Numbered from the stretch's first letter, positions 1,345 to 15,412 are shown. The stretch is DNA of 64,000 nucleotides from Thermincola ferriacetica (GCA_016841325.1 JAENZJ010000015.1:13655-77654), one strand, 5' to 3'. The notes: generated by a model not told the origin, from the sequence alone. Program-made: numbers and translations.

Positions 1345-1415
1345 CTTTCTACCTCCTTAGTGCTTTGGTTAAAATTAAATTTTACCCGTGTTTTCCGGGA
1401 AAATGTTTTCCGGGA

Positions 1416-1447
1416 AAAACAAAAACCAGCACTCAAATGAGTGCTGG
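1416..1447 (-). terminator. Intrinsic terminator in the dctP 5' leader (attenuator terminator)
   Basis: mRNA CCAGCACUCA-UU-UGAGUGCUGG (perfect 10-bp stem, 1426-1447) followed by UUUUUGUUUUU. Confidence 0.8.
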
Positions 1448-1467
1448 CATAATCCTTTTAAATACAG

Positions 1468-1523
1468 CTAACTCATCTCAGCTATTCCTGACTCATCTCA
1501 ACACTTATATCTCAACTCAACTG
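1468..1523 (-). promoter_or_regulatory. Putative MtrB (trp RNA-binding attenuation protein) binding site, 11 NAG repeats
   Basis: mRNA CAG-uu-GAG-uu-GAG-auau-AAG-uguu-GAG-au-GAG-u-CAG-gaa-UAG-cu-GAG-au-GAG-u-UAG (6 GAG, 2 UAG, 2 CAG, 1 AAG). Confidence 0.7.
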
Positions 1524-1554
1524 ACCCGGGTTTCCTGTCTCCCGGTTAATTAAA

Positions 1555-1584
1555 AGTTTACCATGGTACAAAAGCCCCTGTCAA
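1555..1584 (-). promoter_or_regulatory. SigmaA-type promoter of the TRAP transporter operon
   Basis: TTGACA (1584-1579), 18 nt spacer, TAAACT (1560-1555), with TG extension. Confidence 0.7.
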
Positions 1585-1591
1585 CAACTAT

Positions 1592-2569
1592 TTAACTGAT
1601 TTTTTTCTTCTCAGCAATGGCATTGCTCCACTTCCCGCACTTGTCATTCCAGCGGGCCAGGATGTTTTTGCGGTCCCTGATCTCTATTACTTCACACAGG
1701 TTAGGACAGTCTTTACATTCAAAACTGGCAGCCTCAAACATTTCTTCAGCCACTTCAAATCCTCTAAATGACGTGGTTCCGGTTTTCCTGACCGCATCTC
1801 TGGCCAGGATGGCTGCACCGACAGCTCCCATGACATCATAGTGTTCCGGGATGATAACCTCAACTCCCAGCGCTTTTTCAAATGCCTGTTTAATCCCGAT
1901 ATTGGCCGCCACACCACCCTGGAAAATAACCGGCTCCAGAATCTCCTTACCTTTGCCCACATTGTTGAGATAATTCCGCACCAGGGCATCACAAAGACCT
2001 GCCAGGATATCAGGCAGATTATGCCCCATCTGTTGTTTGTGGATCATATCAGATTCAGCAAAAACAGAACACCTTCCGGCAATCCGTACCGGGTTGCCGG
2101 CCTTTAAAGCAATATCTCCAAATTCCTCTATCGGGATATTGAGCCTTGCGGCCTGCTGGTCCAAAAATGAACCGGTCCCTGCCGCACAAACGGTATTCAT
2201 GGCAAAATCAGCCACTACACCGTTCCTCAGGATGATTATCTTGGAATCCTGGCCGCCGATTTCCAGTACCGTCTGGACCCCCGGGACCAGGCTGGAGGCT
2301 GCAATAGCGTGGGATGTAATCTCATTTTTCACCGAGTCGGCCCCGACAATAATACCAGCCAGGTGCCTGCCGCTGCCGGTTGTCCCTACCCCTTCGATTT
2401 TCATGCCCTCAGGAATCCTCTCCCTGATATACTCCAGTCCCTTCTGGACAGCATTTATCGGCTGTCCCTGGGTCCGGATATACAAAGAATCACATACCCT
2501 TTCATCCTCATCAAGAAGCACAATATTGGTACTGACAGAACCAACATCTATACCTAAATATCCGCACAT
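1592..2569 (-). CDS. 2-hydroxyacyl-CoA dehydratase activase (BadF/BadG/BcrA/BcrD ATPase, [4Fe-4S])
   Basis: GIDVGSVST, GTTGSGR, EIGGQDSK, MNTVCAAGTGSFL, GRCSVFAES, FQGGVAAN; C-terminal CxxCxxxC motif. Confidence 0.9.
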   Translation of the reverse strand: MCGYLGIDVGSVSTNIVLLDEDERVCDSLYIRTQGQPINAVQKGLEYIRERIPEGMKIEGVGTTGSGRHLAGIIVGADSVKNEITSHAIAASSLVPGVQTVLEIGGQDSKIIILRNGVVADFAMNTVCAAGTGSFLDQQAARLNIPIEEFGDIALKAGNPVRIAGRCSVFAESDMIHKQQMGHNLPDILAGLCDALVRNYLNNVGKGKEILEPVIFQGGVAANIGIKQAFEKALGVEVIIPEHYDVMGAVGAAILARDAVRKTGTTSFRGFEVAEEMFEAASFECKDCPNLCEVIEIRDRKNILARWNDKCGKWSNAIAEKKKIS

Positions 2570-3699
2570 ACCTGTTCTCCTTTCTTTTCAGAAGATTGTA
2601 ACACTGTGTTTTTTACTGTGTTTTTTTCCTTTTTCCTTGCCAGGAGGTCAACAAATGCTTCCAGCCTGGTCAGCACCCCGGCATCACCGGAATGTTCATC
2701 AACAATCAGGCAGAAGGTCGGAATACCCAGGTCCCGGCTCACTGTCGGAATAATGCTCTCAGCAACAATCTCCGGCATACAGGTGAATGGCTGTACCTGG
2801 ATAACCCCGTCATAGTTCCGGTTGGCAAAAAGGACTGTACTCCCAATAGTCTCCTGGCCATGTCCGCCAACAAAGTGGTTTACATAAGGAGGTGCATGTT
2901 TCCGGGCTTCTTTGCTGCCCTTGATCTTCAGCAGGCCCATGAACAGATGGTCATTGATCCATTCACTAAGGTAAATGGAACGCTCCACTTCCACCCCGAG
3001 CCGTCCCAGCTGTTTCTCCACCTCCAGGTTAACAAAAGGCTCCAGCATCACATAGATTTCTCCCACTATGCCGATTCTGACAACCTCGCGCCCATTATCC
3101 ACCGGAATGGCGTCAAGTTCCTGCCGGGCTTTGGAGATGGCATCTTTCAGTTCATTCCTGTCGTGGGCATCATCAATCCACTTCAGGGCCTTTTTATAAA
3201 CCACATCTGCCCTTCCCGGTTCATACTCCCTCGGCCTGATCCGGTGCAGGACATCCTCCACCTCATCCACTGCCCTGGCCTTGTGCCATCCAAACCGGAT
3301 GGCCCTGACAACATCTATCCAGGAGCTGCTTCCGGTTACCTCCCTTATTTTAATCAGGAGTTCCGAAATATGTTTCTGGGGCGGCTCCAGGACCACCATC
3401 TTCATTTTCAGACCCATGTCTTCCAGGATTTCTCTCTGCACCTGAGCATAGTACCCAAACCTGCAGGGACCGACCCCTCCGGCCATCAGGATGGTGTCAG
3501 CTCCCATTTCATATGCTTCAATGAAATTGCCCATATTAATTTTCAGGGGCAGGCAGGCAAATTCGGGTGAATGCTGGGTCCCCAGTGTCAGTGTTTTTTT
3601 GCTGGGCATCGGTGGGACAACGACTTCAACCCCCAGGGATGTCAAAACAGCTTTCAGGCAAATATACATATTACCCATATGGGGAAAGGTTACTTTCAT
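2554..3699 (-). CDS. CoA-substrate enzyme activase-related protein (DUF2229/HAD-fold subunit)
   Basis: SPEFACLPLK, GPCRFGYY, QPFTCMPE, DEHSGDAGVLTRLEAFVD; overlaps both neighbours. Confidence 0.75.
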   Translation of the reverse strand: MKVTFPHMGNMYICLKAVLTSLGVEVVVPPMPSKKTLTLGTQHSPEFACLPLKINMGNFIEAYEMGADTILMAGGVGPCRFGYYAQVQREILEDMGLKMKMVVLEPPQKHISELLIKIREVTGSSSWIDVVRAIRFGWHKARAVDEVEDVLHRIRPREYEPGRADVVYKKALKWIDDAHDRNELKDAISKARQELDAIPVDNGREVVRIGIVGEIYVMLEPFVNLEVEKQLGRLGVEVERSIYLSEWINDHLFMGLLKIKGSKEARKHAPPYVNHFVGGHGQETIGSTVLFANRNYDGVIQVQPFTCMPEIVAESIIPTVSRDLGIPTFCLIVDEHSGDAGVLTRLEAFVDLLARKKEKNTVKNTVLQSSEKKGEQVCADI

Positions 3700-4682
3700 T
3701 GGGCAGCCCTCCTCAACCTGATCATATCCACATATGCCTCCAGTCTGGTGATTATTCCCGCTTCACCTGTATGTTCATCAATGGTCAGGTTCAGGAACGG
3801 AATATTCCTCCTGCGGCGCAGGTGCCTTTCAATAATTTCTCCTGTAAAGGAATCCGGCCCGCAGCCAAAGGAAGCGACATGAATAATACCGTCAATGCTG
3901 TCTGATCTCATGTAATGAAATGCTGAACCGATCATTCGTTTGCCAAGGGTCCAAAACATCTTCTTGGGCAGTTCTGCAGACTTTTCTTCTATTATTGTTC
4001 CGGTAAGGTTATCGGGAGTAACAACCCTTACTCCCATATCCCTGAGTTTTTGAATCAGGTTCATGCTTATATATGAGTCATAGATATTATACCCGTGTCC
4101 GACCAGTGCGATTGTCATATCACCCTGCCGGGCCGGGGAATGGTTTTGGTTGAGCAGTCCCCGGCCCATCTGCTCGATAGCTTCATGTGGCAGGTACCCC
4201 AGGTGGTTCAGCCGGTGAAATCTCTCCTGTTCCTCAATTCCCCTGTTATATGCCTTCCTGATGGTCCTGGGGTTGGATGTGAATACCCGGCCCACTTCAG
4301 CAAATGCCTTAAAAAGATTTTTTTCACTGCGCGACACATTGACAGTTACATCCAGAATCGGCGGCAGGTCCGGAACATTATACCTGATCATATCGGGGAG
4401 GCCCAGGAACTTGGGACATATATATTCCTTCCGTTCCACACTTACCATCCGGGGGATAAATAGGTAATCAACCCTGTCCTTTAAGTCAAGTACGTGTCCG
4501 AAAAACAGTTTTACCGGCAGGCAGGCATCATCCACCGACTGCCTGACACCTTTGTCGAGTATGGCCTTGGTTGTATTTGATGATAAGATAACATCAGCTC
4601 CCAGAGCCCTGAAAAAACCGTTCCACATGGGGAAGTAATAATAAAACAGCAGCGCCCTGGGAATTCCAACTTTGACAGTCAT
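3696..4682 (-). CDS. CoA-substrate enzyme activase-related protein (DUF2229/HAD-fold subunit)
   Basis: VGIPRALLFY, ACLPVK, YICPKFLGLPD, SFGCGPD, DEHTGEAGIITRLEAY. Start placed at ATG 4682 behind an AAGGAGG RBS. Confidence 0.75.
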   Translation of the reverse strand: MTVKVGIPRALLFYYYFPMWNGFFRALGADVILSSNTTKAILDKGVRQSVDDACLPVKLFFGHVLDLKDRVDYLFIPRMVSVERKEYICPKFLGLPDMIRYNVPDLPPILDVTVNVSRSEKNLFKAFAEVGRVFTSNPRTIRKAYNRGIEEQERFHRLNHLGYLPHEAIEQMGRGLLNQNHSPARQGDMTIALVGHGYNIYDSYISMNLIQKLRDMGVRVVTPDNLTGTIIEEKSAELPKKMFWTLGKRMIGSAFHYMRSDSIDGIIHVASFGCGPDSFTGEIIERHLRRRRNIPFLNLTIDEHTGEAGIITRLEAYVDMIRLRRAAQ

Positions 4683-4809
4683 CCTTGCTTCAAACCTCCT
4701 TACTGCAATTGTTCCATCCGATGACATTTTAAGGACATGATTATAATGTCATAATTTAGTAAAAAACCCCAGCTCCTATTATTGACTGAGGTTTCTTTCT
4801 TTATACATC

Positions 4810-6342: not shown

Positions 6343-6908
6343 TTTTCCCTCTCACTCCTGTTAAGTATTTCTAACAGCGCCTTGGTTGTAATGGGGGCAC
6401 CCTTGTGATAATCATCGGCAAAATCCATTTTTCCGGTATCTCCGGTACCGATAATCACCGGCACATCCAGCTGGTTAAGGACATCGACAGTATCACCCTC
6501 CAGATATTTATGCCCGAATTCCTCAGGCAGGCCCAGCTTATTGACAGGACCATCCACAACATTACCGTCATAAGCAACCGATTCATCTACCTTAACCCCT
6601 TCGGTGGATGCTGTATTGGAAGCAACGGCAACAGCGCCGATAACGTTGATATCCGGATGTTCTGCCACATACTTCAATATCCTTTCACCACAGCCGGGGC
6701 CGCTTTTACCCTTGTCATCAACCATGATTACTACCGGGTCTGTCGGGGTCTGTTTAATCAGTTTAACAACCTCCGGCCCTGAGATAGGGGTCGGGTTGCC
6801 CGTAGTCAGTGAGATAAACCGGGCCCCGATATTTCTGGCCGCCACCTGAACTGTCCTCCCGGCCACCAGGTCTCCGTCTGTGACCACGATAACTCTTTTC
6901 CTATTCAA
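6339..6908 (-). CDS. spoVAEa: Stage V sporulation protein AE (SpoVAEa type)
   Basis: VIVVTDGD, GNPT, DPVVIMVDD, GAVAVASNT, GDTVDVL, KGAPIT match recalled B. subtilis SpoVAEa motifs. Confidence 0.88.
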   Translation of the reverse strand: MNRKRVIVVTDGDLVAGRTVQVAARNIGARFISLTTGNPTPISGPEVVKLIKQTPTDPVVIMVDDKGKSGPGCGERILKYVAEHPDINVIGAVAVASNTASTEGVKVDESVAYDGNVVDGPVNKLGLPEEFGHKYLEGDTVDVLNQLDVPVIIGTGDTGKMDFADDYHKGAPITTKALLEILNRSEREK

Positions 6909-14086: not shown

Positions 14087-15412
14087 TTAGTACATTTTTA
14101 CTCCCTCCGGGGTTACCTGACCCCATATAAGTTTCCCCGGTTCAGGTGGTTCCTGGCTTATCTCAATTGCCCTAAGGACCAACTCTTTCACCTGATCTGC
14201 TTTTTCAGCATTATTTGCACAGATGACAGCCAGAGGCTCACCTCCGTTAACTTTGTCACCCCGTTTTTTCATCAGCTCAATCCCTACAGAATGGTCAATC
14301 TGTGAGTCTTTGGTTTCCCTGCCTGCCCCCAGTGTCATGGCAGCAATTCCGATCTGTTCTGCCCGGATACCTGAGATATACCCATCCCTATGGGAATAAA
14401 CAGTAATTTTTTCTCCTGCCTGGGGAAGCAGGGACAGGTTGTCAATAAATGAGGGGTCTCCGCCCTGGTTTTCCACCAGTTCCCTGAACTTTTCCAGGCC
14501 CCGGCCGTTATCAATAAATGCTTCCAACTGTTCCCTGGCTTCCTCTGCTGAGGCTGCCTTACCTGCCAGGTATACCATATGGCTTCCCAGAACCAGGCAG
14601 AGTTCCCTTAGGTCCGGGGGCCCGTCTCCCCTGAGGCACTCAACAGCCTCCCGCACCTCCAGGGCATTTCCAACCGTATTCCCCAGCGGCTGCTCCATAT
14701 CGGTAATCAGGGCGACAGTCTGCCTGCCCACGCGGGTACCTATTTCCACCATTGCCTTTGCCAGGTCTGCAGCACTTTCCAGGGTTTTCATAAAGGCACC
14801 GTCTCCTGTTTTGACATCCAGGACTATGGCATCTGCCCCGGCGGCTATTTTTTTGCTCATCACACTGCTGGCAATCAGAGGGATACTGTCAACTGTTGCC
14901 GTGACATCCCTCAGAGCATACAGCTTCTTGTCCGCCGGCGCCAGGTTCCCGGTCTGGCCTCCGATGCTGATTCCGATTCGGTTGACATTTTCAATGAACA
15001 CATCCCTGTCAAGGGAAGTGTTAAAACCCGGAATGGATTCCAGTTTGTCTATCGTACCCCCGGTATGCCCAAGGCCTCTCCCTGACATCTTGGCAACCGG
15101 GACACCGGCTGCAGCCACCAGCGGGCCAAGTACAAGGGTAGTCTTGTCACCCACACCGCCCGTACTGTGCTTATCCACCTTTATACCGGCTATTCCCGAA
15201 AGGTCCACCTGTTCACCTGATGACACTATAGCCATGGTCAGGTCAGAGGTCTCCCTTGCCGTCATGCCCTGGAAAAAAACGGCCATTACAAAGGCCGCAA
15301 TCTGGTAGTCGGGAACACTCCCTGACATATACCCCCTGATCAGATGGTTTATTTCTTCAGTGGACAGCTCCATGCCGTTTCTTTTTTTTAAGATAGTGTC
15401 ATAAACCCTCAC
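14087..15412 (-). CDS. pdp: Pyrimidine-nucleoside phosphorylase
   Basis: [45 protein letters not shown]. Confidence 0.96.

Follow-up and report, generated by a model that had tools for sequence, protein, structure and literature searches.

The trp RNA-binding attenuation protein, MtrB, is known to control the tryptophan biosynthesis genes of Bacillus and a few permeases. In the leader of the B. subtilis trpEDCFBA operon, a 5' stem-loop precedes about 11 (G/U)AG triplets spaced 2-3 nt apart, an array that overlaps the 5' strand of an antiterminator, which in turn excludes a downstream intrinsic terminator. Two transport genes of B. subtilis, trpP (yhaG) and ycbK, are also regulated by MtrB, through sites that act mainly on translation initiation. 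Here we analyse a 64,000-nucleotide stretch of DNA from Thermincola ferriacetica (JAENZJ010000015.1:13655-77654; hereafter the window, with positions counted from its first letter), in which a leader sharing all of these trp leader features, and likewise predicted to terminate transcription at high tryptophan, lies ahead of the dctPQM genes of a tripartite ATP-independent periplasmic (TRAP) transporter. We consider it likely that MtrB and tryptophan terminate transcription here, that is, that the dctPQM operon is under a protein-dependent attenuator of the B. subtilis trp-leader type and serves as an uptake and salvage module for conditions of tryptophan scarcity.

The attenuator would be of a known kind, with target genes and lineages that appear to be new. 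Unlike the B. subtilis trp leader, which precedes biosynthesis genes, the leader in the window precedes a tripartite transporter, and those of its relatives also precede iorAB and a paaK-like ligase gene; the host is an anaerobic Peptococcaceae or Thermincola-like Firmicute, and CAG or AAG stands in place of (G/U)AG at three of the 11 positions in the array. The proposal resembles trpP and ycbK in placing tryptophan-related transport under the same regulator, with uptake lowered at high tryptophan. It differs from them in that control is predicted to act through transcription termination, and in that DctPQM, with its periplasmic binding protein, belongs to another transporter family.

The leader occupies 240 nt on the minus strand, with a BcrAD/BadFG-type activase gene (1592-2569) on one side and a DctP-family gene (1344-283) on the other, and all of the elements claimed for it in a first-pass annotation of the sequence are present from 1584 to 1412. 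A sigma-A-type promoter (1555-1584, minus strand) matches the consensus at 10 of 12 positions, with TTGACA at 1584-1579, an 18-nt spacer and an extended -10 element (TGgTAAACT, the -10 hexamer TAAACT lying at 1560-1555), and should start transcripts near 1548. The predicted 5' stem-loop, CCGGG(N10)CCCGG (1526-1545, minus strand; -8.5 kcal/mol), is found directly upstream of the triplet array; it is kept in the minimum free energy (MFE) structure of each construct folded and has a counterpart hairpin at the same place in three of the related loci described below (L001, L003 and L006).

The triplet array, a candidate site for an MtrB-type ring protein on the basis of a pattern scan and conservation in orthologs, extends over 1468-1523 on the minus strand. 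Read from 1523 to 1468, its triplets are CAG GAG GAG AAG GAG GAG CAG UAG GAG GAG UAG (6 GAG, 2 UAG, 2 CAG and 1 AAG), separated in order by 2, 2, 4, 4, 2, 1, 3, 2, 2 and 1 nt. The count of exactly 11 NAG triplets with 1-4 nt spacers that had been proposed is thus correct, but it should not be over-read, since three of the 11 are weak triplet types and the orthologous arrays chain from about 9 to 16 triplets. An intrinsic terminator (1412-1448, minus strand) completes the leader, in which GCCAGCACUC-AUUU-GAGUGCUGGU forms a G+C-rich stem of 10 bp with a 4-nt loop (1448-1425; -18.1 kcal/mol) followed by the U tract UUUUUGUUUUU. This terminator lies between the promoter and the regulated open reading frame (ORF), and a terminator is kept at this place in all orthologous leaders.

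No chain in the window is longer than the 11 triplets of the leader, and the longest chain per simulated 64 kb averaged 6.8 triplets with a maximum of 11 in 100 first-order Markov simulations. The runner-up, a chain of 9 triplets at 14565-14521, falls within a pyrimidine-nucleoside phosphorylase gene (14087-15412); it was rejected as a second site and is taken as a chance coincidence in a coding gene. Since the array alone is modest evidence, it is the location between promoter and terminator, together with conservation, that makes it non-random.

Folding showed that the 5' arm of the terminator has two alternative partners, both of which fall inside the triplet array, so that the array overlaps the antiterminator strand (antiterminator region 1437-1505, minus strand, defined by folding energies, base-pair probabilities and the alignment). 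The pairing proposed in the first-pass annotation, 1476-1465 with 1446-1437, does exist as a 10-bp helix with a UA bulge (-8.3 kcal/mol), but it is not the favoured one: in the ensemble of the transcript that ends before the terminator 3' arm, it forms with a probability of ~0.28, compared to ~0.71 for a second pairing of 1505-1499 with 1446-1440. In this pre-terminator transcript the 5' arm is paired with a probability of ~0.9-1.0, always with array bases. When the array was forced to be single-stranded, the 5' arm became free and the terminator was the MFE structure, showing that antiterminator and terminator are mutually exclusive, as had been claimed.

Conservation of the leader is what makes the array convincing. 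A profile of DctP homologues gave 75 loci from one-genome-per-species collections, and the order of promoter, GAG/UAG array, antiterminator and terminator is kept before orthologous dctP genes in about 10 other anaerobic Firmicutes genomes, a check that had been set beforehand. These leader-bearing genomes include Thermincola-like, Desulfovirgula, Desulfofundulus, Formimonas, Desulfocucumis, Pelotomaculum-like and other Clostridia. The same leader is found in all orthologues of at least 69% identity except L008, as well as in the Pelotomaculum-like group at 58-59%; array and terminator stand before dctP in L001-L007, L030, L036 and L041, and before paaK-dctPQM in L008. The orthologous leaders have a TTGACA-type promoter at the same place and often a 5' hairpin, the best-kept part of their arrays is the 3' block GAGnnGAGnnGAGnnGAGnnGAG, and their terminators use CCAGCACUCA/UGAGUGCUGG or a variant of it with covarying changes. 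When both strands of 1.1 Mb of fetched DNA were scanned, 15 sites scored at least 5, and the top nine include seven dctP leaders along with the one that precedes paaK-dctPQM in L008.

To assess covariation in the two helices, ten leaders were aligned. In the terminator, 96.7% of alignment cells are paired and four pairs show compensatory double changes; in the antiterminator, 82% of cells are paired, compared to 27-59% in slid controls, and columns 11 and 46 form a U-A pair in five of the leaders and a C-G pair in three. Changes at column 46 are matched at column 11 in the antiterminator and also at column 64, its terminator partner, which is the signature of two mutually exclusive helices sharing one strand.

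The closest locus, L001, encodes a DctP 90% identical to that of the window. The metagenome-assembled genome (MAG) that contains it bears the label 'Thermincola ferriacetica BL5_bin.1', yet its DctP clusters with that of Phosphitispora fastidiosa, and the species label is probably wrong. A cluster look-up likewise placed the window DctP in a 90% cluster with Phosphitispora fastidiosa, the T. potens and T. ferriacetica proteins being 72% identical. The window also contains spo0A, spoIVB, spoVA and sigF-type genes, in agreement with an anaerobic spore-former near Phosphitispora and Thermincola. The sequencing runs found by a search were metagenomes containing fragments of the organism, with no RNA-seq or isolate runs among them.

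Arrays that directly adjoin mtrB served as positive controls for what an MtrB site looks like. In four contigs of Firmicutes outside the Bacillales (L086-L089) mtrB lies directly upstream of trpE, and the leader between them contains 10-13 triplets of the GAG/UAG type and a terminator; a fifth trpE leader, L188, was added to the control set from a metagenome scan with GAGNNGAG x6, the matches of which were almost all satellite-like repeats. The dctP, iorA and paaK leaders are close to this set in the share of GAG (70% vs 73%), of UAG (13% vs 20%) and of 2-nt spacers (66% vs 76%), and their spacer bases are A/U-rich in the same way. The L086-L089 leaders thus resemble the type found in the window (GAG ~70%, UAG 13-20%, 2-nt spacers 66-76%, chains of 10-13, then a terminator), and they differ from the window leader in controlling trpE(G)DCFBA, in adjoining mtrB and in the greater distance from array to terminator. 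The window leader appears to match an MtrB site on all cis criteria. The trp-leader-type architecture first proposed for it is therefore borne out by the orthologous leaders, by the compensatory changes and by the match to mtrB-linked trpE arrays.

The gene behind the leader, dctP, with its ribosome-binding site, occupies 283-1358 on the minus strand (AAGGAGG at 1358-1352, TTG start codon at 1344-1342, coding sequence 1344-283) and encodes a protein of 353 aa, the lipoprotein-type solute-binding protein of a TRAP transporter (Pfam DctP at 156 bits against a cut-off of 23.4; NCBIfam TRAP_S1). Sequence reading places the start of dctQ, the small membrane subunit, at 1-254 on the same strand, where it is cut by the window end; in the syntenic locus L001, the homologous ORF is Pfam DctQ and is followed by DctM, confirming the DctP-DctQ-DctM order there. 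The closest solved relatives of the window DctP are 4N6D, 4PGN/4PGP and 4NAP (E 3e-86 to 2e-80, ~44% identity), and this ~44% identity to Dde_0634 and its relatives spans the whole mature protein. The structures 4PGN, 4PGP and 4NAP are of Dde_0634 and 4N6D is of Desal_3247, both from Desulfovibrio species; these proteins belong to the same DctP subfamily as the window protein, but are proteobacterial and come without a GAG-array leader. The Dde_0634 depositions presumably hold indole pyruvate, 3-indole acetic acid and D-tryptophan as ligands. Dde_0634 is reported as an indole-3-acetate binder in a passage of PMC9973260, and a passage of PMC10443332 lists 4NAP with a D-amino acid and counts one indole-3-acetate binder in the DctP family. 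By homology, the most likely substrate of the transporter is one of the indole acids indole-3-acetate and indolepyruvate, or else tryptophan.

A link to tryptophan is also provided by the genes that accompany dctPQM in related genomes. In Desulfofundulus (L005) and the Pelotomaculum-like group (L030), a single operon runs leader-dctPQM-iorA-iorB-paaK-like. L001 and the Thermincola-like MAG L006 instead have dctPQM and two dehydrogenase genes followed by a second promoter, GAG array and terminator before iorA-iorB-paaK, at 13340-13610 in L001 and 13215-13515 in L006, ~4 kb downstream of the dctP leader; the region matching this second leader falls outside the window. In L008, from Desulfovirgula thermocuniculi, a GAG array and terminator (6497-6610) stand before the gene for a PaaK-like CoA ligase, which is directly followed by dctPQM, suggesting that gene order is shuffled and control is the same. 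IorA of these relatives scores 829 bits, compared to the NCBIfam equivalog cut-off of 650.9 for indolepyruvate:ferredoxin oxidoreductase, and the paaK-like gene is phenylacetate-CoA-ligase-like. By homology and linkage, then, the genes behind these leaders fall in tryptophan metabolism or transport, and membership of the transporter in a tryptophan regulon, as the first-pass annotation had inferred, is supported both by the Dde_0634 homology and by iorAB and paaK-like genes under the same type of leader.

These elements suggest how the leader would work. When tryptophan is scarce, part of the GAG/UAG array in a transcript begun near 1548 would pair with the terminator 5' arm, CAGCACUCAU, to form the antiterminator, allowing read-through into dctP. 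When tryptophan is plentiful, a tryptophan-loaded MtrB ring would wrap the 11 triplets at 1523-1468 and hold the array single-stranded, so that the 5' arm would be free to enter the 10-bp terminator and transcription would stop near 1425-1412. A protein bound to the array would cover the antiterminator strand that overlaps it and could therefore only favour termination, so that the operon would be on when the ligand is scarce; a regulatory sign of this kind fits uptake or salvage, not catabolism.

Such a salvage route could begin with uptake and activation to the CoA ester, after which reductive carboxylation by IorAB would give indolepyruvate, and transamination tryptophan. We know of no link to an MtrB attenuator for the comparable aryl-acid route of Methanococcus maripaludis, which is archaeal, unlike the Firmicute route proposed here. 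Passages of PMC4162585 describe anabolic aryl-acid use of indolepyruvate oxidoreductase as established in M. maripaludis (Porat et al.), where the enzyme is of the same IorAB family and serves to convert imported aryl acids to aromatic amino acids; in the Firmicutes the anabolic direction is suggested by the regulation. More tentatively, and as a possibility we rate somewhat below even, the reach of MtrB in anaerobic spore-forming Firmicutes (Thermincola, Phosphitispora-like, Desulfofundulus, Desulfovirgula, Pelotomaculum-like and Formimonas) may extend beyond biosynthesis to an entire regulon for tryptophan salvage, comprising DctPQM, the PaaK-like ligase, IorAB and transamination under twin GAG-array attenuators. 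Imported indole-3-acetate or indolepyruvate would be its substrate, the PaaK-like ligase would form indoleacetyl-CoA, and the genes would be de-repressed at tryptophan shortage. No paper came up in a full-text literature search combining 'trp RNA-binding attenuation protein' with 'indolepyruvate'; as subscription journals and regulon databases lay outside the search, this suggests only weakly that the link has yet to be described. Literature on how mtrB is distributed among Clostridia was also sought, and nothing relevant was found.

Several observations weigh against control by MtrB and tryptophan. The array in the window consists of eight strong (G/U)AG triplets and three weak ones (two CAG, one AAG), has two 1-nt spacers and, as a bare pattern, is only modestly significant. 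By tblastn, mtrB was not found in the 64-kb window, and none of nine mtrB contigs that were looked up comes from an assembly with a dctP leader. No array precedes dctP in the orthologues from Bacillaceae, the family that dominates the list of MtrB homologues. The transported ligand is suggested by a homologue of ~44% identity, and the salvage direction of the oxidoreductase by the sign of regulation only. The gap between leader and mtrB is also what speaks for a genuine GAG-repeat attenuator read by a protein that is not an MtrB orthologue, either unrelated or very divergent, and answering perhaps to indole-3-acetate or phenylacetate: neither the window tblastn nor the nine contigs, all from other assemblies, place mtrB in a leader-bearing genome, the Bacillaceae orthologues are without the array even though MtrB is common in that family, and the transporter, iorAB and the paaK-like gene could serve several aryl acids beyond indoles. 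We regard such a reader as unlikely, since the arrays cannot be distinguished in triplet identity, 5-nt periodicity, repeat number or spacers from those immediately downstream of mtrB in the trpE leaders, and since mtrB is widespread in Firmicutes outside the Bacillales. One MtrB homologue search gave 4559 matches, those listed being all of Bacillaceae type; a second, seeded from a Clostridia MAG, gave 102 proteins, none of them named Thermincola or Peptococcaceae, and mtrB was present in Clostridia MAGs, Halanaerobiales and Limnochordales. To our knowledge, no other protein family reads 9-11 GAG/UAG triplets at 2-3-nt spacing.

The triplets could also be a by-product of complementarity to the CUCA-rich terminator arm, in an attenuator or terminator that is constitutive or otherwise regulated, for example by RNA-only kinetics or an unrecognised riboswitch. 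In favour of this, the antiterminator strand is made up of the final two repeats (GAGAUGAGU), so that some GAGs are explained by base pairing alone, and an 11-triplet chain does arise by chance at a low, non-zero rate. Pairing to the terminator is limited to the last 2-3 repeats, however, while the 6-10 repeats upstream are kept as GAG/UAG with drifting spacers and no conserved pairing partner; the same arrays stand before different terminators in the iorA, L008 and trpE leaders, and the leader has no Rfam family match, which together make this explanation very improbable. A terminator/antiterminator pair upstream of a tryptophan-related operon would equally be expected of ribosome-mediated leader-peptide or T-box attenuation, a possibility effectively refuted by the sequence. 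The leader peptide is ruled out because the only short leader ORFs, MSQE*, MS* and MPALI*, have no Trp codon, and a T-box or other curated Rfam leader or riboswitch because the Rfam search of the leader gave no T-box, riboswitch or leader family, with best E-values of 1.5 or worse and 11-19 bits, far below the gathering scores of 44-170. HutP sites consist of two sets of three UAG triplets with 4-nt spacers, and protein binding there prevents the terminator from forming. A site of this type was ruled out because the triplets here are mainly GAG, at 2-nt spacing and 9 or more in one run, and because their overlap is with the antiterminator strand and not with the terminator.

The DctP orthologues of Bacillaceae and relatives (L009-L049) are 54-64% identical and have no GAG array; their dctP is usually linked to octopine-dehydrogenase-like and 3-hydroxyacyl-CoA-dehydrogenase-like genes rather than to iorAB. 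The same pair of dehydrogenase genes also follows dctPQM in L001, L003 and L006. When eight of the orthologue loci from Bacillaceae, Paenibacillaceae and Brevibacillus were searched with Rfam for a Trp T-box, nothing was found upstream of dctP. The missing arrays, the missing Rfam matches and the dehydrogenase linkage suggest that control of dctP is lineage-specific.

Around mtrB itself, several Clostridia-type MAGs (mtrB contigs L077-L085 and L215) share the gene order dnaE-mtrB-(61-67-aa ORF)-pfkA-pyk. The small ORF next to mtrB is conserved (MW[IT]VVY...CFEVLVP...AQDLI..NELF) and has no Pfam match on record. On the mtrB-trpEDCFB contig L086, a second GAG/UAG array of 9 triplets lies across the trpE stop and trpD start (3310-3353), and resembles a translational-control site rather than an attenuator.

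Two further features flank the leader in the window. An exact 15-nt tandem duplication, TGTTTTCCGGGAAAA x2 (1389-1418, minus strand; UUUUCCCGGAAAACA x2 in the mRNA sense), lies between the U tract of the terminator and the ribosome-binding site of dctP, and each of its units is near-palindromic, TTTTCC(C)GGAAAA. L001, the closest relative, does not have this duplication, which may have arisen by recent slippage or may act as an operator bound by a DNA-binding protein. Upstream of the leader, three genes on the same strand (1592-4727) encode two DUF2229/HGD-D-like proteins and an ATPase of the acyl-CoA dehydratase activase type; their synteny with the dctP leader holds in L001 and L006, but not in Formimonas.

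Control of dctPQM by MtrB would widen the regulon of this protein to a different class of transporter, to a ferredoxin-dependent 2-oxoacid oxidoreductase and to strictly anaerobic lineages. The natural leader variants, with their covariation, would be useful for understanding how ring-shaped RNA-binding proteins read imperfect repeat arrays. For the conserved cluster, the leaders provide a functional prediction, namely uptake of indole acids and their conversion to tryptophan under tryptophan limitation. If the salvage regulon is real, it would tell us what the widespread dctPQM-iorAB-paaK cluster does for the cell and what regulates it, and would stand as the first example in bacteria of an aryl-acid route to tryptophan that is under regulation.
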